A DNA stretch of 64,000 nt, from the IMG/VR virus record IMGVR_UViG_3300032156_000005, positions 1 to 64,000 of that record; one strand, written 5' to 3'. The notes beneath the pieces were generated by a model. That model searched no databases. It had not been told where the DNA came from and worked only from the letters and a program-made list of their open reading frames with translations. Numbering within the stretch: position 1 is the first letter of the stretch; the number at the start of each line of letters is the position of its first letter. The stretch is from a virus. Its lineage: Duplodnaviria; Heunggongvirae; Uroviricota; Caudoviricetes. Made by a program: the position numbers and the translations under genes. Shown here in pieces: positions 36,790-56,396 of this stretch.

Positions 36790-36862
36790 AAGCAGGGTGG
36801 AGTAGTTGGTAACTCGATTGGCTCATAACCAATAGATCGTCGGTTCAAGTCCGGCCCCTGCC
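36790..36862 (+). tRNA. tRNA with CAU anticodon (Met / fMet-like / possibly Ile2-lysidine)
   Basis: Manual cloverleaf fold. Acceptor 36790-36796 pairs with 36855-36861 (6 bp plus an A1·C72 mismatch). U8, D-stem GAGU/ACUC, D-loop AGUUGGUA with G18G19. Anticodon stem AUUGG/CCAAU, loop CUCAUAA. 5-nt variable loop. T-stem GUCGG/CCGGC, T-loop UUCAAGU. Discriminator A. No encoded CCA. Confidence 0.8.
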
Positions 36863-36910
36863 ACTATGGACGTACCGTTCTTTTGTCACGGTAACTTTTA
36901 GGGGGTAAGT

Positions 36911-38818: not shown

Positions 38819-41590
38819 ATGATACCCTTAAATACGCCCACCACCATCAAGTTGGAAACAACGACCCAATCAGGGGCTCGTGTTAGGGTTCCAGCTACAA
38901 TCTTGGCCACTGACGCCAGGATTGAATTCTTAAAATCCCCCTTCTCTTTGAAGGACGAGATTAAGGCAATGAAGCATGCCGAGTGGCAGGGGTACAAGGA
39001 TCCACCAAGGAAAATTTGGACAGTAGAAAACTGTCAACGTAATTGGTTTCAATTACAGGTCATGATGGGGGAAAATCCCTACGAATGGTTTGATCGTCCA
39101 CTCCAGCATTTCAAATATGATCGCCCTCTGATGGGTCACCAGTTTGATATGTCGGACGCTGGACTCACATACCATTATCAACTCTTCGGAGCAGAAATGG
39201 GCTGCATTGCCGGGGACGCTATTGTTCACGTAAACCGTGCTGGTAGGGGATTTGCGTTTTGTTTGAGTGAACTTTGTTATAAATTCCACGGTGGTCGGAG
39301 TAGCGGCACGACGATGCGTTCCGACACCCGCGGTAGGTCATGGGATCTGAGTATTCCAACCTATGTCCAAGGATTTAAGGGCGACCGAATTGGACTAGTT
39401 AAGATACAGGATGTATTGTATAAGGGGCGGAGAGAGGTTGTTCGCGTGACTTTGGAGACAAAATCACTGACACTGACTCCAGATCACGAGGTCTGCATAG
39501 GAGCCTTTAGGTATGGTAAGTTTAAACCAGTTCAGGATCTAGTAATTGGTGACCGTGTTATGGTACGACTTGATGATGGAGTATCCGATGAGGTTAATAG
39601 CGAGGTACAGGCACTCCCGAGTACGCTAGTAAAGACAACAACGCGTGGTATGGGTTACTGGCTAGATAAAGATGGATATATACGTATCGGCGGTCTAAAG
39701 GGTCATCCACGTTGGGGTGCCCACGGAGTCTACGAGCATCTTCTAGTAATGGAAGATTTGCTTGGCCGACCTGTGCAGATTGGCGAAGAGGTTCACCATA
39801 AGAATAAACAGCGATGGGATAATCGTCCGTCGAATTTAATTTTGTGTGCGACTAAAACAGACCACATGGCATTGCATCAAAATTACAAGAATTTAAAATG
39901 TGGGTGTTATGTGTTTGAATGTGTCACCGGCATTAAAGACGCCGGGTCGATTGATGTCTATGATATCCAATGTGAGGGTCCATACCACAACTTTGCCGCT
40001 AATGATATAATTGTCCATAACTGCGGCAAAACTTTGTCAGCCATTGAAACGATGGAGAAGTCAGGTAAAAAGAAGTGGTGGTGGGTAGGTCCTAGATCTG
40101 GACTCTATGCAATCGAGCGCGAATTTAAGAAATGGGAAATCAGTCCCAACCTTGAAGTGGAGTTAATGACCTACGAGGGTCTGGTAAAACGCATGGGAAT
40201 GTGGAAGTCAGGCGACCCCGCTCCAATGGGTATTGTCTTCGACGAAATCAGCAGGTGTAAAACTGCCAAGACGCAACGAACACAAGCCGCCCAGGCTATT
40301 GCAGACGGTGTCCGTGCTGATTGGGGTCTAGAAGGTTACGTCCTTGGCATGTCTGGCACCCCATCCCCCAAGTCACCTGTGGATTGGTGGGCGCCGACGG
40401 AGATCATTTGGCCTGGATTTTTACGCGAGGGGGATTCTAATGCGTTCAAATTTAGACTTGGGATTCACAAAAAAGAAGAGAGTGCTATGGGTAATGCCTT
40501 CTGGCAACTCGTGGACTGGAGAGACGACGAACGAAAATGTGATGTTTGCGGAGAATTTAAGGAAGAGGGTATGCATTCATGTCGTATCGGCACGGATTTG
40601 AATGGGACGGAATCGGACATTCATGATTTTAAAGCCAGCATAAATGAGGTGGCATACCTTAATGAGCGACTAAAGGGGTTGGTCATCGTGAAGCTGAAAA
40701 AGGACTGCCTCGATCTGCCAGAGAAACAGTATCGACAGGTATTCTGTAAACCATCACCAGCAACCGTCCGAGTTGCTGAAGCCTTGATGAAATCGGCACC
40801 AAATACCATTACTGGTCTAACTCGTCTTCGTGAATTGAGCGACGGGTTTCAGTATAGGGACAAGGTCGTTGGTAAGGAAACTTGTCCAATATGCAAGGGC
40901 ACTTGTTTGAATACTTACTGGGTAGATCCAGAAGATTCTGAGCGTGCTTTTACTATGACCGATATGTTAGACGCAGAGTATGTATCTACATTGATTCAAA
41001 CTGAGATGCCATGTGTATCATGTAATGGCACGGGCGAAGTCGCTAAGATCGAGCGTCAAGTGAAAGAAGTACCGTGTCCCAAGGAAGCGGAGTTAATTAA
41101 TCTCCTAGACGAAAACGAAGAGACTGGCAGGTTGGTTGTATTCGCTGGTTTCACTGGTTCGATTGACAGAGTGACCAACGTATGTATGAAGCAGGGTTGG
41201 GACGTGATTAGGGTTGATGGACGTGGTTGGTTGACTTTTAAGGCTGACGGAGAAACAACAGCCGAAGCGCCATTGGATTATTGGGCTGACGTTGTGAATC
41301 ACCCACGAGTAGTATTTGTTGCACATCCGAAGTCTGGCGGTATGGCCCTGACATTGACCGAAAGTAGAATGATCTGTTTCTACTCGAATGACTACAATCC
41401 AGAATCCCGAAGTCAGGCCGAGGATCGTATACATCGTCCTGGAATGGATATTAATCGTGGAGCAACAATAGTTGACTTGTTACATTTACCCACCGATTTA
41501 AAGGTGCTGGAGATACTGAAAGCTAATAGGCGTCTAGAACTAATGTCTCTCGGCGAATTTCAGGGCTGCTTTCAAGATGTCGAAGCATAG
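38819..41590 (+). CDS. SNF2/DEAD-like helicase interrupted by an intein in the Walker A motif
   Basis: Exteins give Walker A FGAEMG|CGKT and a DExx-like FDEISRC. Helicase C-terminal motif VI is QAEDRIHRPGMDI, preceded by ...VVFAGFTGSIDRV.... Cys4 clusters CPICKGTC...CVSCNGTG. The intein occupies 39203..40021. Confidence 0.7.
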   Translation: MIPLNTPTTIKLETTTQSGARVRVPATILATDARIEFLKSPFSLKDEIKAMKHAEWQGYKDPPRKIWTVENCQRNWFQLQVMMGENPYEWFDRPLQHFKYDRPLMGHQFDMSDAGLTYHYQLFGAEMGCIAGDAIVHVNRAGRGFAFCLSELCYKFHGGRSSGTTMRSDTRGRSWDLSIPTYVQGFKGDRIGLVKIQDVLYKGRREVVRVTLETKSLTLTPDHEVCIGAFRYGKFKPVQDLVIGDRVMVRLDDGVSDEVNSEVQALPSTLVKTTTRGMGYWLDKDGYIRIGGLKGHPRWGAHGVYEHLLVMEDLLGRPVQIGEEVHHKNKQRWDNRPSNLILCATKTDHMALHQNYKNLKCGCYVFECVTGIKDAGSIDVYDIQCEGPYHNFAANDIIVHNCGKTLSAIETMEKSGKKKWWWVGPRSGLYAIEREFKKWEISPNLEVELMTYEGLVKRMGMWKSGDPAPMGIVFDEISRCKTAKTQRTQAAQAIADGVRADWGLEGYVLGMSGTPSPKSPVDWWAPTEIIWPGFLREGDSNAFKFRLGIHKKEESAMGNAFWQLVDWRDDERKCDVCGEFKEEGMHSCRIGTDLNGTESDIHDFKASINEVAYLNERLKGLVIVKLKKDCLDLPEKQYRQVFCKPSPATVRVAEALMKSAPNTITGLTRLRELSDGFQYRDKVVGKETCPICKGTCLNTYWVDPEDSERAFTMTDMLDAEYVSTLIQTEMPCVSCNGTGEVAKIERQVKEVPCPKEAELINLLDENEETGRLVVFAGFTGSIDRVTNVCMKQGWDVIRVDGRGWLTFKADGETTAEAPLDYWADVVNHPRVVFVAHPKSGGMALTLTESRMICFYSNDYNPESRSQAEDRIHRPGMDINRGATIVDLLHLPTDLKVLEILKANRRLELMSLGEFQGCFQDVEA
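39203..40021 (+). mobile_element. Intein (273 aa) with HNH homing-endonuclease domain, inserted in the helicase P-loop
   Basis: Starts Cys (CIAGDAIVHVNRAG, block A) and ends ...NDIIVHN followed by +1 Cys (CGKT). The internal HNH motif is EEVHHKNKQRWDNRPSNLILCATKTDHMALH. Removing it restores the contiguous P-loop GAEMGCGKT. Confidence 0.75.
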
Positions 41591-42286: not shown

Positions 42287-42977
42287 ATTATTGATCGACG
42301 ACGTACTACCTACGCTTTCTAGTAAAGAGTCCGTAGTATGTTTATCCCGTAGTGGAATAGTCCCATGTGACTTCAAGGCTATTACTGACTACATGCAAGA
42401 GACTGGTTATCCACCGACACCTGGACCATACTCAGGAAAAGAGATGTTCCTGGATTTGGGATTTAATACGTATGACGACATAGACTTCGTACCGGACGAA
42501 GGCGTGTCGATTGTACACGATATGAACACACCCTATTGTGGTGACGAATACAGTCTCGTATTTGAATGCGGTACAATGGAGCATATCTTTGATACTGCTC
42601 AAGTGTTTAAGAATACAATTAATCTGTGTGAAGTTGGTGGGACAGTCTGCCATATATCTCCACTGACGTGGTTGAATCATGGTTTCTATAACTTTTCATT
42701 AACACTATTTTACGATGTCTATCGAAACAATGGTTTTGACGACTTCAAATTTTGGTTGATAAACTGGCCTAGGAATTATGGACAAGTGGGCTCCTCAAAG
42801 GCCATGAAGATTGATTTCACACCAACTCAAATTTTACCACCAATTGGTTCTGATTTTTTGATGGTCGCTTTTACGGCACGAAAATCGCATAAGTGTGATT
42901 TTAAGATTCCAATACAAGCGGCCTATGACCCCAGCCTCGCATTAAATACTCCACTACGAAAGCATACAAATGAATAG
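42264..42977 (+). CDS. Putative class I SAM-dependent methyltransferase
   Basis: Motif I-like MFLDLGF, acidic motif II DFVPDEG, motif III region YSLVFECGTMEHIFD, then NLCEVGGTV (L..GG). The true start may be the internal Met near 42393. Confidence 0.45.
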   Translation: MLTLGIVRLLIDDVLPTLSSKESVVCLSRSGIVPCDFKAITDYMQETGYPPTPGPYSGKEMFLDLGFNTYDDIDFVPDEGVSIVHDMNTPYCGDEYSLVFECGTMEHIFDTAQVFKNTINLCEVGGTVCHISPLTWLNHGFYNFSLTLFYDVYRNNGFDDFKFWLINWPRNYGQVGSSKAMKIDFTPTQILPPIGSDFLMVAFTARKSHKCDFKIPIQAAYDPSLALNTPLRKHTNE

Positions 42978-44139
42978 ATGTTTAGCTTGCGGACACTTAG
43001 TTTCACGCCAATTATTCAATCCAGGTCCACAACCGTTATCGGCGTTGAATTTACCTCGGAGCGAGTCTGAAGCAGTGGATGCCAACAGATTTCCAATGAA
43101 CTTTCGATGCTGTGGAATCTGTGGCCATGTGTGGAACACTGACTTCGAGTACACTAAAGTACCCTATGCGGGGGACTCAAATCTCATGTATAACAGCGGT
43201 GCGTTGTGGCAAGACCACATGCAAATGCTGGTGAGTAAGTTAGCTGAGAACAAGGCTATGTGGGTTAAGAATCCAGTTATTGATATTGGTTGTGGCGATG
43301 GGCAATTTCTTTCGTTACTACTCAAAGCAGTACCCGAAGCAAAGTGTGTGGGCTTTGAACCGGGTATTGATGGTACTAAAATTACCGAGTTTGAATGTGT
43401 ACAGGATTACTTTCGACCAGAGCGAGATATTGCGGCAAGACAACCATCGTTACTTATTTGTCGCCACGTCTTAGAACATATCGCGGACCCACGTGATTTT
43501 ATTGCCTCTGTTGCATACTGGTGTGGACAATGTTCCGTTGCGACCGTGTTTTTAGCTGAAGTTCCATGTTGCGAAAAGGCATTGGAGTCGGGGAGAGTGT
43601 CGGACTTTTTATACGAACATGTTTCCAACTTTACACTGAACAGTCTATATGCGATGTTTGGCACTTCTGGTTTTAAGTTGCTTGAAACTTCACGTTTATA
43701 CGGGGACGAAGTGGTCGTTGGATTTTTCCAGCCGCATGAGGAAGCTTTGAAACAGAATCATCGGTCAATGCTTAAATTCTCGACTTACGTGCAGGACTCA
43801 AGAACAAATATCCAATTGAAGCAATCTAATTTGGATGGCGATGTTGTTCTATGGGGTGGCACTGGAAAGAGCGCAGCATTTTTGAATATGTTCGGATTCG
43901 ATGCAGATCGCTTTCCTGTGGTGGTCGATTCAGATCCACTAAAAGTAGGTAGGTATGTTCCAGGAACGGGGCAGAGGATTGATTCACCAGATAGTTTGGT
44001 AGGACGAACACCAACTATCATTATTACAACTGCATGGCGTGCTAATGACATCTATGCAGAGATCAATCGCCGTGGCATTAGATACAAGAGTCTATTAGTT
44101 CTTAAAGACGGAGACTTGAATGAGTATACCCAATCTTGA
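42970..44139 (+). CDS. Zinc-ribbon C-methyltransferase-like SAM methyltransferase (TylCIII/NovU-type architecture)
   Basis: N-terminal C-x-x-C...C-x-x-C zinc ribbon (CLACGH...CCGICGH), SAM motif I VIDIGCGDGQFLSLL, then a C-terminal extra domain (~120 aa). The arrangement is as in NDP-sugar C-methyltransferases. Confidence 0.55.
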   Translation: MNRCLACGHLVSRQLFNPGPQPLSALNLPRSESEAVDANRFPMNFRCCGICGHVWNTDFEYTKVPYAGDSNLMYNSGALWQDHMQMLVSKLAENKAMWVKNPVIDIGCGDGQFLSLLLKAVPEAKCVGFEPGIDGTKITEFECVQDYFRPERDIAARQPSLLICRHVLEHIADPRDFIASVAYWCGQCSVATVFLAEVPCCEKALESGRVSDFLYEHVSNFTLNSLYAMFGTSGFKLLETSRLYGDEVVVGFFQPHEEALKQNHRSMLKFSTYVQDSRTNIQLKQSNLDGDVVLWGGTGKSAAFLNMFGFDADRFPVVVDSDPLKVGRYVPGTGQRIDSPDSLVGRTPTIIITTAWRANDIYAEINRRGIRYKSLLVLKDGDLNEYTQS

Positions 44140-45877
44140 TTTGTATGACTGCCTAGCCCTACTAAAGAGGCAAGACTACCTAAAATTAACTCAAAATTTG
44201 ATCGAGGTAGTTAAACATTTTAACCTTGTCTGTTATACGCAGCTAAGTCGAGCAGAGCGCGTTAATTTAGACGATTGTATGTCTACATTTTTCTTTATTT
44301 TTTCTCATCCCAGTTTTCAAATACCTGCTGATTACGCGAAGGTATTTGTTAATATAAATCATGTCATTTCAAATATGGCAATGATGTCGTCAGTTGGTTC
44401 AACGCTTCCGGCATTAAATCGAGTAGCCCTACAGGATAATAACTACGTAAAGCTTCTAACATTATCAACCTGTCAGACACCACTCGATGTGAATTTTAAC
44501 GACCTGTTTACTCCTAATGCGGAGTTGACTTCGGTTTGGTGGTTGAATTATCAGACGTCAGCAGCGGGCACGCTTACCAAGGAAGTACACGATCGAGTAG
44601 TTTCCCATCTTCAGAGTATGCCAGAGAAGTTTGTATTGTCGGATTTTCGCACGGCACCACTTTATTTTCAAAGTACCTACTACTCTCCTGAAACTGATTA
44701 TATCATTAAAACAGAGTTGAATCGTCAAGTACGATCCAAGTTGTCCAGTGCAAAGATACAAACAATAAATCCTAAGAGAGTGGCCATTATTACTGATAGA
44801 TGGCAACCCACCACAGCGGTATATAAGAGTTGTTATCATCAAATTGAAGCGTTATCGAACAAGTATGACCTAACTTTGGTTTATTTTTCAGAGGACAGAG
44901 AATCAAAGATTGATAGGGGGCTCTTCAAAGAAACTAAGCGAGTTTACTTGGAGCCAGATATGAAGCGATTAAATTTCTCTGAGATCAAGCATAACGATTT
45001 TAAGTTTGCATACTTCCCAGATATCGGCATGAATTACGAGTCGGTTTGTCTGTCAAATATGCAAGTTGCACCAATCATGGCCACGGGTTACGGCCATCCA
45101 GTTAGTACCTTTGGTAGTAAGATTGACTATTTTATTGGTGGTATGGACGCTGAAGTGCCAGAACTCGCCGAGAAGAATTACAGTGAGAGACTAGTGCTTA
45201 TACCTGGAATTGGGGCTCATCCGGTCTTTCCAAACTACGTGCGAAAAAACCCCACCCCGTCTAAATTTATTATCAACTGTTGTTGGACTGCTCCAAAGAT
45301 TAACTACCCAATGCTAGAAGCATTGAAAGAAATCAAGTCGCGGGCTTCCAAGCCAGTGCATTTTCAGTTTTTCCCGTCCTGGACGGTTAGCCGATACCAG
45401 TCCGCATTACCATTTCTAACTGGAATGGACAAGGTATTTGAAGGAAATTCGACGGTATATTTTGACACTCCCTACCAACAATACCTGGAGTTGTTGGAAC
45501 AAGGTCGATTTTCACTAGACTCGTATCCGTTTGGGGGTTATAACACGGTTGTGGACTCATTGTTTGTCGGATGCCCAGTTGTAACGATTGAAGGGTCTAG
45601 ATTCTTTAATAGGGCATCATCTGCGTTAATGCGTAAGGTTGGATTACCTGATCTGATAACAACGAGCGTTGAAGAGTACATTGGACTGGCTGTTGAACTA
45701 ATTGACAATAGCCAAGAATTAGATAGTCTACGATCCGTAATAGGTAGTACGGATTTAAAGAGCCTGTTAGTGGACAACAATGAACCTATTTCATTCGCAA
45801 ATGCCATTGAGTATCTCGTAGATACCCACATCGAATTGAAGGCTTCGGGGAGTCGAAAACCGATAATCTTGGCATGA
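44120..45877 (+). CDS. GT41-family (O-GlcNAc-transferase-like) glycosyltransferase
   Basis: C-terminal catalytic region FDTPYQQYLELLEQGRFSLDSYPFGGYNTVVDSLFVGCPVVTIEGSRFFNRASSALMRKVGLPDLITTSVEEYIGLAVELIDNSQELDSLR aligns by eye with the OGT block [49 protein letters not shown]. Confidence 0.55.
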   Translation: MSIPNLDLYDCLALLKRQDYLKLTQNLIEVVKHFNLVCYTQLSRAERVNLDDCMSTFFFIFSHPSFQIPADYAKVFVNINHVISNMAMMSSVGSTLPALNRVALQDNNYVKLLTLSTCQTPLDVNFNDLFTPNAELTSVWWLNYQTSAAGTLTKEVHDRVVSHLQSMPEKFVLSDFRTAPLYFQSTYYSPETDYIIKTELNRQVRSKLSSAKIQTINPKRVAIITDRWQPTTAVYKSCYHQIEALSNKYDLTLVYFSEDRESKIDRGLFKETKRVYLEPDMKRLNFSEIKHNDFKFAYFPDIGMNYESVCLSNMQVAPIMATGYGHPVSTFGSKIDYFIGGMDAEVPELAEKNYSERLVLIPGIGAHPVFPNYVRKNPTPSKFIINCCWTAPKINYPMLEALKEIKSRASKPVHFQFFPSWTVSRYQSALPFLTGMDKVFEGNSTVYFDTPYQQYLELLEQGRFSLDSYPFGGYNTVVDSLFVGCPVVTIEGSRFFNRASSALMRKVGLPDLITTSVEEYIGLAVELIDNSQELDSLRSVIGSTDLKSLLVDNNEPISFANAIEYLVDTHIELKASGSRKPIILA

Positions 45878-54716: not shown

Positions 54717-56396
54717 ATGCGAACCGGTTCTCGAATTATTGGAGCAAGACGAATGAGATTTCATCTATTTGGGTTAGCGAACATCCCAACGTGTAAAGAG
54801 AATACCTATGAACCCATGACTCCACTGGTTTGGAACATGGCTAAGATGCTACATGACCACGGCCATCACGTCATCTTCTATGGTGCCGAGGGGAGTAATC
54901 CACCTTGTAGCGAGCTAGTAAATATCGTTCCAAAGGATTTGTTACCTGATCCCGCTATTGGAAATCACGGTGTACCCATGGCAGCATGGAAAAACGACGG
55001 CGGCAGCCCTTCCTGGCAGTCTTTCATAAATACTGGACGACTGGAATTGCGTAAACGCTACCAGACGGGTGATATTTCACTCATTAGTTTTGGTCAGTAC
55101 CAAAGATTCGTGGCAGAGGAATCAAAACTCGCTTGTGAATTCATGTGCGGATACTCAGGTATTTTTAGTTACCATAAGGTTTTTCCATCTAGTGCTTGGA
55201 TGCATTATCTATATGGTGAACTCAAAATGGAACGAAACCCCACTTGGACTGATTGTGTCATCCCACATTACCTGGATCTAAGTGACTTCAGATACCAAGA
55301 GGAAAAGGGCGACTATCTTCTATGTCTGGGTCGAATCGATCGAGATAAGGGCACAGACATCGCCATCGACATCGCAAATAGGAGTGGCTCCAAGATCATC
55401 GTTGCCGGTGTCGATATGGTAACGCACGATATTCCGGATTGGATTAAACAAATGCCGGGTAACGTAGAATTTGTTGGCTACGTGGATACAAAGCGAAGAC
55501 TCGAACTATTACGTGGTGCCAAGGCATTATTGCATCCATGTAGGTGGTTGGAGCCATTTGGGATGGTTTTAATTGAATCGTTGGCTTGTGGCACGCCGAT
55601 TATTGCTAGTGACTGGGGTGCCCTACCTGAGATTATTGAAGAGGGTAAGACTGGTTTTTGTTGCCGGGATATGTCTGAGTTTATACAGGCCGTAAAGAAT
55701 GTGTCATACTTAAATCCGCGTGATTGCCGTATTTCCGCCGAACGGGATTATGGGCTGGAGATTGCGTATACAAGGTATATGAAGTACTTTACGCGACTTG
55801 CCAAACTACTGGGAGGTGGCTGGTATGAGACCAGAGGTATCTGGCGTGGACCAGATGTTGTTGGGCGGGTACGCCGACTACAACCGACTGATAAACCACT
55901 ACGAGGGGCAGAGATCGGTGTTGATCGCGGTGCTTTGTCAGGGTATCTCATGTCTGAACTACCTAATCTCAATTTGTTATTGGTTGATACCTGGAGTACC
56001 TTCGCAGACGATTCAGGGTACACAAAATCTGGTGATCTTGTAACCCAACGAACACAAGAACAGCGGGATGCTGATCTGTTTGAAACTATGCGTGTCACTC
56101 CTCGTGATCGTTCTTGTATCTGTAGAATGACATCCGCCGAAGCTTCTGAAAAGGTTTTAGACGGATCGCTTGATTTTGTATTCATTGACGCAGACCATAG
56201 TTATGAGGGTGCCAAATCTGATATACAGTTATGGGCCTCTAAGATACGAGATGGTGGCATTCTTTGCGGGCATGACTTCGGTATGGAAACGTGGTTCCCT
56301 GACTGGGGTGTTACAAAGGCGGTTACTGAGTACGCGGAAAGCGTTGGTAAAACTGTTGAGTTGGGTTCTGATTGGACATGGTTTATCCAGGTGTAA
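54717..56396 (+). CDS. Glycosyltransferase (GT-B, GT1/GT4-like) fused to a class I SAM-dependent methyltransferase
   Basis: GT signature EPFGMVLIESLACGTPIIASDWGALPEIIEEGKTGF (E-x7-E motif). The C-terminal ~190 aa carry MTase motifs GAEIGVDRGALSGYL (motif I-like) and LDFVFIDADHSYEGAKSD (TylF/macrocin-O-MTase-like FIDADH). Confidence 0.6.
   Translation: MRTGSRIIGARRMRFHLFGLANIPTCKENTYEPMTPLVWNMAKMLHDHGHHVIFYGAEGSNPPCSELVNIVPKDLLPDPAIGNHGVPMAAWKNDGGSPSWQSFINTGRLELRKRYQTGDISLISFGQYQRFVAEESKLACEFMCGYSGIFSYHKVFPSSAWMHYLYGELKMERNPTWTDCVIPHYLDLSDFRYQEEKGDYLLCLGRIDRDKGTDIAIDIANRSGSKIIVAGVDMVTHDIPDWIKQMPGNVEFVGYVDTKRRLELLRGAKALLHPCRWLEPFGMVLIESLACGTPIIASDWGALPEIIEEGKTGFCCRDMSEFIQAVKNVSYLNPRDCRISAERDYGLEIAYTRYMKYFTRLAKLLGGGWYETRGIWRGPDVVGRVRRLQPTDKPLRGAEIGVDRGALSGYLMSELPNLNLLLVDTWSTFADDSGYTKSGDLVTQRTQEQRDADLFETMRVTPRDRSCICRMTSAEASEKVLDGSLDFVFIDADHSYEGAKSDIQLWASKIRDGGILCGHDFGMETWFPDWGVTKAVTEYAESVGKTVELGSDWTWFIQV

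Follow-up and report, generated by a model that had tools for sequence, protein, structure and literature searches.

Inteins are known to concentrate in the phosphate-binding loops (P-loops) of replication ATPases, and SNF2/HepA proteins, in which 15 inteins have been counted, rank within the top 15 intein hosts of bacteria (PMC4760082). At the 'classic' P-loop site the intein separates the invariant Lys from the Thr or Ser that follows it (GK↓T, where the arrow marks the point of insertion), and alternative sites one residue apart are found in the large terminase (TerL) of mycobacteriophages (PMC5050341). The SNF2 inteins that have been discussed experimentally belong to class 3; they have no N-terminal nucleophile, carry Thr or Ser at the +1 position and are recognised by the WCT triplet, with Trp at position 12 of block B, Cys at position 4 of block F and Thr at position 5 of block G (PMC2807308). 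Knowledge of inteins with an HNH nuclease in frame goes back to 1997 (work cited by PMC5050341 and by bioRxiv 10.1101/2025.01.02.630785). In a survey of actinobacteriophages these were classed as non-canonical and rare; the four non-canonical types, of which an in-frame HNH is one, amounted to 63 of 784 inteins, and were located in genes for DNA polymerase, minor capsid, terminase and thymidylate synthase (bioRxiv 10.1101/2025.01.02.630785). Here we describe a 273-residue element within a helicase gene of an uncultured tailed phage, found in a window of 64,000 nucleotides (positions 1 to 64,000 of the IMG/VR virus record IMGVR_UViG_3300032156_000005) that forms part of a 121.5-kb metagenomic contig. 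With a probability of about 0.9, an HNH homing endonuclease embedded in an intein of class 1 (the standard class) makes up this element, which is inserted in the P-loop of a phage SNF2-like helicase.

The element has much in common with the class-1 inteins described from other P-loops (DnaB site b, MCM site a, RFC-S site a and mycobacteriophage TerL1-a/b; PMC4760082, PMC5050341): a HINT domain placed in frame within Walker A, an arrangement of Cys1...His-Asn/Cys+1, a replication or recombination ATPase as host, a sporadic distribution, and neighbouring alternative sites within one loop. It differs from them in position, lying two residues upstream of the classic site (G↓xGKT) and thereby imposing a Cys on a variable position, and in its nuclease, which is of the HNH type whereas P-loop inteins usually carry LAGLIDADG. 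The host family and the location in the ATPase core or P-loop are shared with the inteins of SNF2/HepA proteins (COG0553), including the Snf2 intein of Deinococcus radiodurans (PMC4760082, table 1; PMC2807308), but the SNF2 inteins of PMC2807308 are class 3, while the features here (Cys1, block F Asp and Cys+1) are those of class 1. As in other inteins that hold an HNH in frame, the nuclease sits between the N- and C-terminal splicing halves; what differs is the host, a SNF2-like helicase. Free-standing HNH_3 endonucleases (PF13392), matched by tblastn in phages of Streptomyces, Mycobacterium, Bacillus, Gordonia and Hafnia, have a core that is 32-60% identical over 40-110 residues and the same motif (HH..N..DN..NL..H..H), whereas the domain in the window has no start codon of its own, is embedded in HINT and would be expressed within the helicase precursor. 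Full-text searches of a limited corpus found no paper describing a class-1 HNH intein at G↓CGKT of SNF2 helicases.

Translation of the helicase open reading frame (outlined in table 1) places the first residues of the insert, CIAGDAIV, at amino acid 129 and the last, DIIVHN, at amino acid 401. This confirms to the base the boundaries given in an earlier reading made from the letters alone (the sequence-only reading), which had proposed an in-frame insert of 273 amino acids. The two alternative forward frames contain 19 and 30 stop codons over the insert, and therefore the helicase frame alone is open there. Excision of the 273 residues in silico yields a 650-amino acid protein that reads ...HYQLFGAEMG-CGKTLSAIET..., and the masses computed for precursor, ligated exteins and insert are 104.4, 73.8 and 30.6 kDa, respectively. 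The PROSITE pattern of P-loops is [AG]-x4-G-K-[ST] and the consensus of SNF2 motif I is DEMGLGKT; the restored loop, A-E-M-G-C-G-K-T, fits both. The sequence-only reading had spoken of a 'perfect GxxxxGKT', of which the restoration of the P-loop stands but the literal pattern does not, as the first G lies five residues ahead of the G of GKT and the loop is AxxxxGKT (SNF2 motif I) instead. In a structural model of the spliced protein, with a predicted local distance difference test score (pLDDT) of 86.4, residues 120-125 form a strand, residues 126-130 (MGCGK) a loop and residues 131-142 a helix. This modelled strand-loop-helix of RecA lobe 1 is the classical P-loop with the splice junction at its centre, in agreement with the claim that the insertion falls inside the Walker A loop.

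The residues expected of a class-1 intein are present throughout the insert. Conservation was assessed on an alignment of 26 HNH-bearing relatives from the same insertion site, which are 30-65% identical to the intein of the window. In addition to the residues of blocks A and B listed in table 1, V252, D254, P260, N263, F264 and N273 of blocks F and G are invariant in this alignment, as are H198, H199, N201, D206, N207, N211, H221 and H225 of the HNH region. The C-terminal sequence (DVYD254...HNF...IVH272-N273↓C) supplies the block F Asp at position 4, the penultimate His, the terminal Asn and the +1 Cys. The C-terminal splicing region passes NCBIfam TIGR01443 (intein_Cterm) with 21.6 bits against a cut-off of 15.6, and the last ~45 residues align by phmmer with the Synechocystis (Ssp) DnaB intein 1mi8 and other solved inteins. 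Residues 177-222 match Pfam HNH_3 with 34.5 bits, where the gathering score is 24.8, and the PHROG profiles assign the insert to HNH endonuclease families (expectation value (E) ~5e-14). No match at E <= 1 was returned when the 90-amino acid HNH segment was compared with PDB sequences by phmmer, so no closest solved HNH structure can be named by sequence.

The predicted fold agrees with these assignments. An AlphaFold2 model of the intein, built on the alignment of 26 relatives, has a pLDDT of 87.6 and a predicted TM-score (pTM) of 0.76; only two loops, residues ~31-50 and ~121-140, are of low confidence, while both splice junctions reach pLDDT 93-98 and the HNH region adopts a strand-strand-helix at residues 196-225, in keeping with a beta-beta-alpha-metal motif. 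When the model was compared with the PDB using Foldseek, every one of the top 50 matches was an intein or a Hedgehog HINT domain, and the lowest E was 1e-8; the Ssp/Npu DnaB, Mtu RecA, Mxe GyrA, PI-PfuI and VMA inteins were among them, as were the entries 6frg, 4o1r, 1am2, 1mi8 and 2imz. TM-scores to the targets were 0.7-0.8, and ~0.8 to mini-inteins. Because of the profile E-values, the confident fold and the homologues with an empty site described below, a chance match is excluded. The identification of the insert as an intein, made in the sequence-only reading, is borne out by Cys1, TPDH, the block F Asp, His-Asn, Cys+1, the TIGR01443 score and the predicted HINT fold, and is as good as certain. 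The HNH motif proposed with it is likewise upheld, both by the HNH_3 score and by the invariance of its catalytic residues. The linker that precedes the HNH core is partly missing from shorter relatives (243-249 amino acids) and may be a DNA-binding extension.

Two related element types were considered and rejected. A class-3 intein is ruled out by Cys1, by a block B (TPDHEV) without Trp, by the block F Asp, by block G (IIVHN) and by Cys+1. Bacterial intein-like (BIL) domains are HINT domains that lie in variable stretches of non-conserved proteins and as a rule lack both a conserved +1 nucleophile and a nested endonuclease; the insertion at an invariant catalytic loop, the conserved Cys+1, the terminal Asn and the nested HNH rule out a BIL domain.

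Table 1. Features of the helicase gene and its insert, in window coordinates. Intein residues are numbered from Cys1.
Feature	Coordinates	Strand	Description	Basis
Helicase open reading frame	38819-41590	+	923 aa	Open reading frame list
N-extein coding region	38819-39202	+	Precursor aa 1-128; C-terminal ...HYQLFGAEMG supplies the opening half of SNF2 motif I / Walker A	Open reading frame list, translation
Probable class-1 intein, HINT splicing domain with nested HNH nuclease	39203-40021	+	273 aa, 30.6 kDa, precursor aa 129-401	
Block A (CIAGDAIVHVNRA)	39203-39241	+	Cys1 nucleophile, codon 39203-39205	Translation; C1, G4 and A6 invariant in 26 related inteins
Block B (TxxH), T-P-D-H	39476-39487	+	Intein T92 and H95, predicted to activate the N-terminal scissile bond	Translation; T92, D94 and H95 invariant in 26 related inteins
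Linker, with a small beta region, ahead of the HNH core	39575-39730	+		Alignment gaps at columns ~134-162; pLDDT 67-69 for residues ~121-140
HNH_3 nuclease core (YEHLLVME...VHHKNKQRWDNRPSNL...DHMALH)	39731-39877	+		Pfam HNH_3, PHROG HNH families, invariant residues, tblastn
Blocks F and G (DVYDIQCEGPYHNFAANDIIVHN)	39953-40021	+	Block F Asp254, penultimate His272, terminal Asn273	phmmer to Ssp DnaB intein 1mi8; TIGR01443; invariant residues
C-extein coding region	40022-41590	+	Aa 402-923 and stop; Cys+1 (40022-40024) then GKT; rest of SNF2-like ATPase core	

Judged by its conserved residues, the element probably splices, and a likely course can be set out from these residues and the established chemistry of class-1 inteins. 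The 104-kDa precursor would be translated with a split P-loop, making ATP binding impossible. Splicing would begin with an N-to-S acyl shift at Cys1, aided by Thr92 and His95 of block B, and the resulting thioester would be attacked by Cys+1, to which the acyl group is transferred. Cyclisation of Asn273, aided by His272 and the block F Asp254, would then be followed by an S-to-N shift, giving a 650-amino acid helicase that reads AEMGCGKT and a free 30.6-kDa intein. Homing would take place in a cell co-infected by an intein-less relative, where the HNH nuclease would nick or cut the empty site encoding AEMG[T/L/V]GKT, and recombinational repair of the cut allele would copy the intein in. We infer, in line with the sequence-only reading, that the helicase is inactive unless spliced and that the element is a complete homing intein.

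A search for homologues over 5.8 billion proteins returned 575 relatives, and the best 120 were used to count alleles. Some 70 of these are proteins of 630-670 amino acids with an uninterrupted AEMG[T/L/V]GK[T/S] and no insert. A further 44 carry an insert at the identical G↓C position, and all 44 have Cys at +1; these inserts measure 243-286 amino acids where HNH_3 is present and 145-195 amino acids in the mini-inteins, which lack HNH. The exteins closest to that of the window (P0004, P0006 and P0007) are free of the intein and 78-82% identical to it over 650 amino acids; the extein of the window is fully open and retains all the invariant residues of the family. P0004 and P0007 are located in syntenic contigs, in which a ParB_N gene, a gene for a 167-amino acid protein and the helicase are followed by methyltransferase, GT41 and RNA ligase genes, with a family A DNA polymerase (PolA) gene additionally present in contig L003. 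In two syntenic intein-free phage contigs (L003 and L005) the empty site is visible at the DNA level. The comparison of the extein-only sequence with intein-free homologues, which the sequence-only reading had suggested, thus shows syntenic relatives ~80% identical with an intact loop.

Two intein-free alleles have Cys at the position corresponding to +1, namely P0006 (AEMGCGKT), which is sister to the allele of the window, and P0029 (AEAGCGKS); other empty alleles have Thr, Leu or Val. The Cys in P0006 and P0029 may be the footprint of a precise loss of the intein.

Empty sites, full-length HNH inteins and HNH-deleted mini-inteins coexist at one position. A homing cycle consists of invasion, fixation, decay of the endonuclease and loss, and this coexistence is the pattern expected of it. 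On a neighbour-joining tree of the exteins the intein is scattered; the allele of the window is sister to the intein-free P0004 and P0006, and other sister pairs include P0003/P0070, P0017/P0110 and P0013/P0059. The most similar intein is that of P0003, with 65% identity overall, 79% in the HNH segment and 64-65% in the splicing domain, and the extein of P0003 is only 60% identical. Conversely, the most similar intein-bearing extein is P0011 (67.5%), whose intein is 41% identical. The identity between two inteins shows no correlation with that between their exteins over the 946 pairs that the 44 alleles form (Spearman rho -0.06), which indicates horizontal mobility. Taken together, the patchy distribution and the decoupling of intein and extein in these sequences indicate ongoing mobility in the family. 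No co-conversion tract was found near the junction: the 30-amino acid flanks of the extein are 67-70% identical to P0003, the allele that resembles an intein donor, as against 77-87% to intein-free alleles.

The intein family extends well beyond these helicases. A profile built from the 26 inteins and run on 1.84 billion representatives of 50% clusters showed the HNH-intein family to be abundant in metagenomes; it matched 666 representatives at E <= 1e-30 and 26,446 proteins at E <= 1e-10, many of which probably cover the HNH or the HINT part only. Nearly all of the best 147 matches are full-length and inserted at [D/A][E/D]MG↓CGK[T/S], with DEMG↓CGKT (35), DDMG↓CGKT (17) and AEMG↓CGKT (6) among the sites counted. 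Seven hosts were sampled; five pass Pfam SNF2-rel_dom, P0150 is an AAA ATPase (PF00004) and P0212 is MCM-like, and in the last two, again, the intein directly precedes CGK[T/S]. The family is also found at G↓[C/S]GK[S/T] in bacterial metagenome-assembled genomes, including those of Bryobacterales, Acidobacteriota, Burkholderiales, Myxococcales and others, and one further locus (L009, 1501-2316) has a member of the family in a non-SNF2 P-loop that reads VVDGAEG↓SGKS. The placements in P0150, P0212 and L009 suggest jumps between ATPase families.

Among 50,697 phage records, no match was found to the whole gene by megablast, nor to the spliced extein by tblastn at E <= 1e-10, and the HNH core alone matched free-standing HNH endonucleases (tblastn). 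The core is also 33% identical to a segment within or beside DNA methylase genes of mycobacteriophages (records H4-H12, for example MK524521.1, 67089-67388). This segment may be the 'ShiLan' homing insertion of PMC11855218, as a candidate identity only.

A number of observations weigh against an intact class-1 intein with a homing nuclease. The insert scores 34.8 bits with Pfam Intein_splicing (PF14890), 1 bit under the gathering score of 35.8, which its same-site relatives pass with 41-77 bits, and its 17.2 bits with TIGR01445 (intein_Nterm) do not reach the cut-off of 24.5. These scores would be in keeping with a dead intein or a BIL remnant that does not splice, leaving the helicase gene effectively a pseudogene. 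Such a remnant is nevertheless highly improbable, given that the catalytic set (C1, T92, H95, D254, H272, N273 and C+1) is complete, that both splice junctions are modelled confidently, and that the extein, unlike a pseudogene, remains open, close to its intein-free relatives and in possession of the family residues. A full-length relative is absent from all isolate phages among the 50,697 records, which leaves the element with no experimentally grounded anchor; and no compositional sign of recent arrival was found, as the GC content of the intein (45.9%) is similar to that of the extein (47.0%). With no more than 65% identity to the intein most closely related to it, the element is not a recent invasion, and endonuclease activity could therefore have been lost via changes outside the catalytic motif. 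The identity to the closest intein and the shared composition favour a splicing-competent intein whose HNH no longer homes, a fixed or decaying passenger that persists since imprecise loss would destroy the P-loop; further points in its favour are the HNH-less mini-inteins at the same site, which indicate that the nuclease has been repeatedly lost, and the poor conservation and low model confidence of residues ~121-140 ahead of the HNH core. On the other side, the eight residues of the HNH motif are intact and invariant among the 26 relatives, the HNH segment is better conserved towards the closest relative than is the splicing domain, and the patchy distribution and the decoupling from the extein point to mobility that is ongoing in the family. 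We therefore consider a non-homing passenger unlikely, and judge from the sequence that the HNH has probably remained active as a homing nuclease.

The reading frame is continuous across the insert, and an insert at this position is found in ~37% of the top 120 homologues, as would be the case if the 273 residues were an integral subdomain of the helicase that is never excised. The sequence-only reading had itself named a conserved subdomain of this kind as the finding that would speak against an intein. The empty-site homologues, with their contiguous AEMGxGKT, refute this alternative: the nearest exteins, in syntenic genomes, do without the insert, which would otherwise occupy the middle of the phosphate-binding loop, and the insert has the full catalytic set and fold of an intein; related inserts, moreover, occupy this very place in the loop of SNF2, AAA and MCM-like ATPases that are unrelated. 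The chance that the insert is an integral subdomain is accordingly negligible. In phages, introns or free-standing genes often encode HNH endonucleases, and the core found here does match such genes, which raises the question of whether the open reading frame has wrongly been made to include a free-standing gene of this type or an intron of group I or group II. This is barely conceivable, as an Rfam scan of the whole window finds no intron family and only a tRNA, the insert is in frame while the other two frames are closed by stops, and the HNH core is nested in the HINT fold, with its N and C halves on either side.

The host of the class-1 intein is best described as a divergent SNF2-like ATPase. 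By PHROG profiles, the regions flanking the insert match phrog_62, a DNA helicase family, at 2.9e-44, and the spliced sequence matches lobe 2 of ISW1, Ino80, SMARCA5 and SsoRad54 by phmmer (best 1.5e-7, to ISW1). Foldseek searches with the model of the spliced protein recover ISW1, Ino80, BAF, Chd1, CSB, Rad54, SsoRad54, Mot1 and ZorD at E of 1e-19 to 1e-16. The spliced extein does not reach the Pfam thresholds for SNF2-rel_dom (PF00176; 15.0 against 24.9) or Helicase_C (PF00271; 21.5 against 23.5), while precomputed matches to PF00176 or PF00271 exist for many close homologues; the host is therefore a divergent member. The label 'SNF2-like' used in the sequence-only reading thus holds by fold and by homologues, but not by the Pfam scores of the extein itself. 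The extein also has three family-invariant CxxC pairs, C301/C304, C416/C419 and C459/C462 (window ~40543-40554, 40888-40899 and 41017-41028), which form Zn-ribbon-like inserts between the two RecA lobes and have a weak match to Anti-TRAP and DnaJ-type zinc fingers.

Other inteins occupy this helicase family. Four homologues (P0010, P0014, P0028 and P0085) have a different insert of ~286-340 amino acids two residues downstream, at GK↓T (AEMG[L/V]GK↓...THN↓T). It begins with Gly1 and has SxxHLW in block B, ECICI in block F, VTHN↓T in block G and LAGLIDADG motifs; by its sequence it is consistent with the class-3 (WCT) signature of PMC2807308. A third site is found in P0113, where a 339-amino acid LAGLIDADG class-1 intein (CLAAD...LLAHN↓C) follows a conserved WW motif; this site corresponds to residue ~253 of the window extein (PVDWWAP↓TEI), at about nucleotide 40396.

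Among the helicase alleles compared, none carries both the G↓C and the GK↓T intein, and mutually exclusive inserts are seen in sister alleles. A more elaborate view would have the class-1 HNH intein (G↓CGKT) and the class-3 LAGLIDADG intein (GK↓T) competing for overlapping sites in one 8-residue P-loop, such that occupancy by one destroys the target of the other, and would add a role for the intein as a conditional switch that times the activation of the helicase. The switch may be sensitive to redox state or metals, via the Cys1/Cys+1 pair and the nine cysteines of the intein; only Cys1 of these cysteines is invariant in the 26 related inteins. We hold this combined view of competition and switching to be improbable.

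The genome to which the window belongs is that of a phage; the window also has genes for a large terminase of the gpA type, a tape-measure protein, a primase-helicase with DUF5906, a family A DNA polymerase and a ribonucleotide reductase. Ten large open reading frames of the window were scanned for further inteins, including those for TerL, the tail tape measure, the DUF5906 helicase, PolA and the ribonucleotide reductase, and none was found. A tRNA-Met gene (anticodon CAT; 36791-36864, + strand) lies ~2 kb upstream of the helicase gene and is the sole Rfam or ARAGORN match in the 64-kb window. Beside the replication genes, at 42970-45877 and 54717-56396 (+ strand), are genes for Methyltransf_23/14, a GT41 glycosyltransferase and a GT1 + Methyltransf_24 fusion. 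The syntenic relatives share this methyltransferase and glycosyltransferase cluster, which may be a module that modifies DNA or the surface.

The element is one more case of a widespread and already understood type of selfish element; for the targeting of P-loops it provides one further example and resolves no open question. The gene is unnamed in the source records, and its proper annotation would be an intein-containing SNF2-like helicase with a 650-amino acid mature product and a 273-amino acid HNH intein. Its compact size, the pairing of Cys1 with Cys+1 and the tolerance of Gly at both -1 and +2 may give the intein some minor interest for engineering. The comparative set is more useful than the single case, as it comprises 44 inteins at the same site, HNH-deleted mini-inteins, empty sites (two with Cys at +1), a class-3 intein at a distance of two codons, and 666 cluster representatives whose hosts are of the SNF2, AAA and MCM-like kinds. 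HNH-type intein endonucleases are far less characterised than those of the LAGLIDADG type, and this set of alleles could serve as a natural series for the study of both the homing cycle and the HNH-type endonucleases of inteins.

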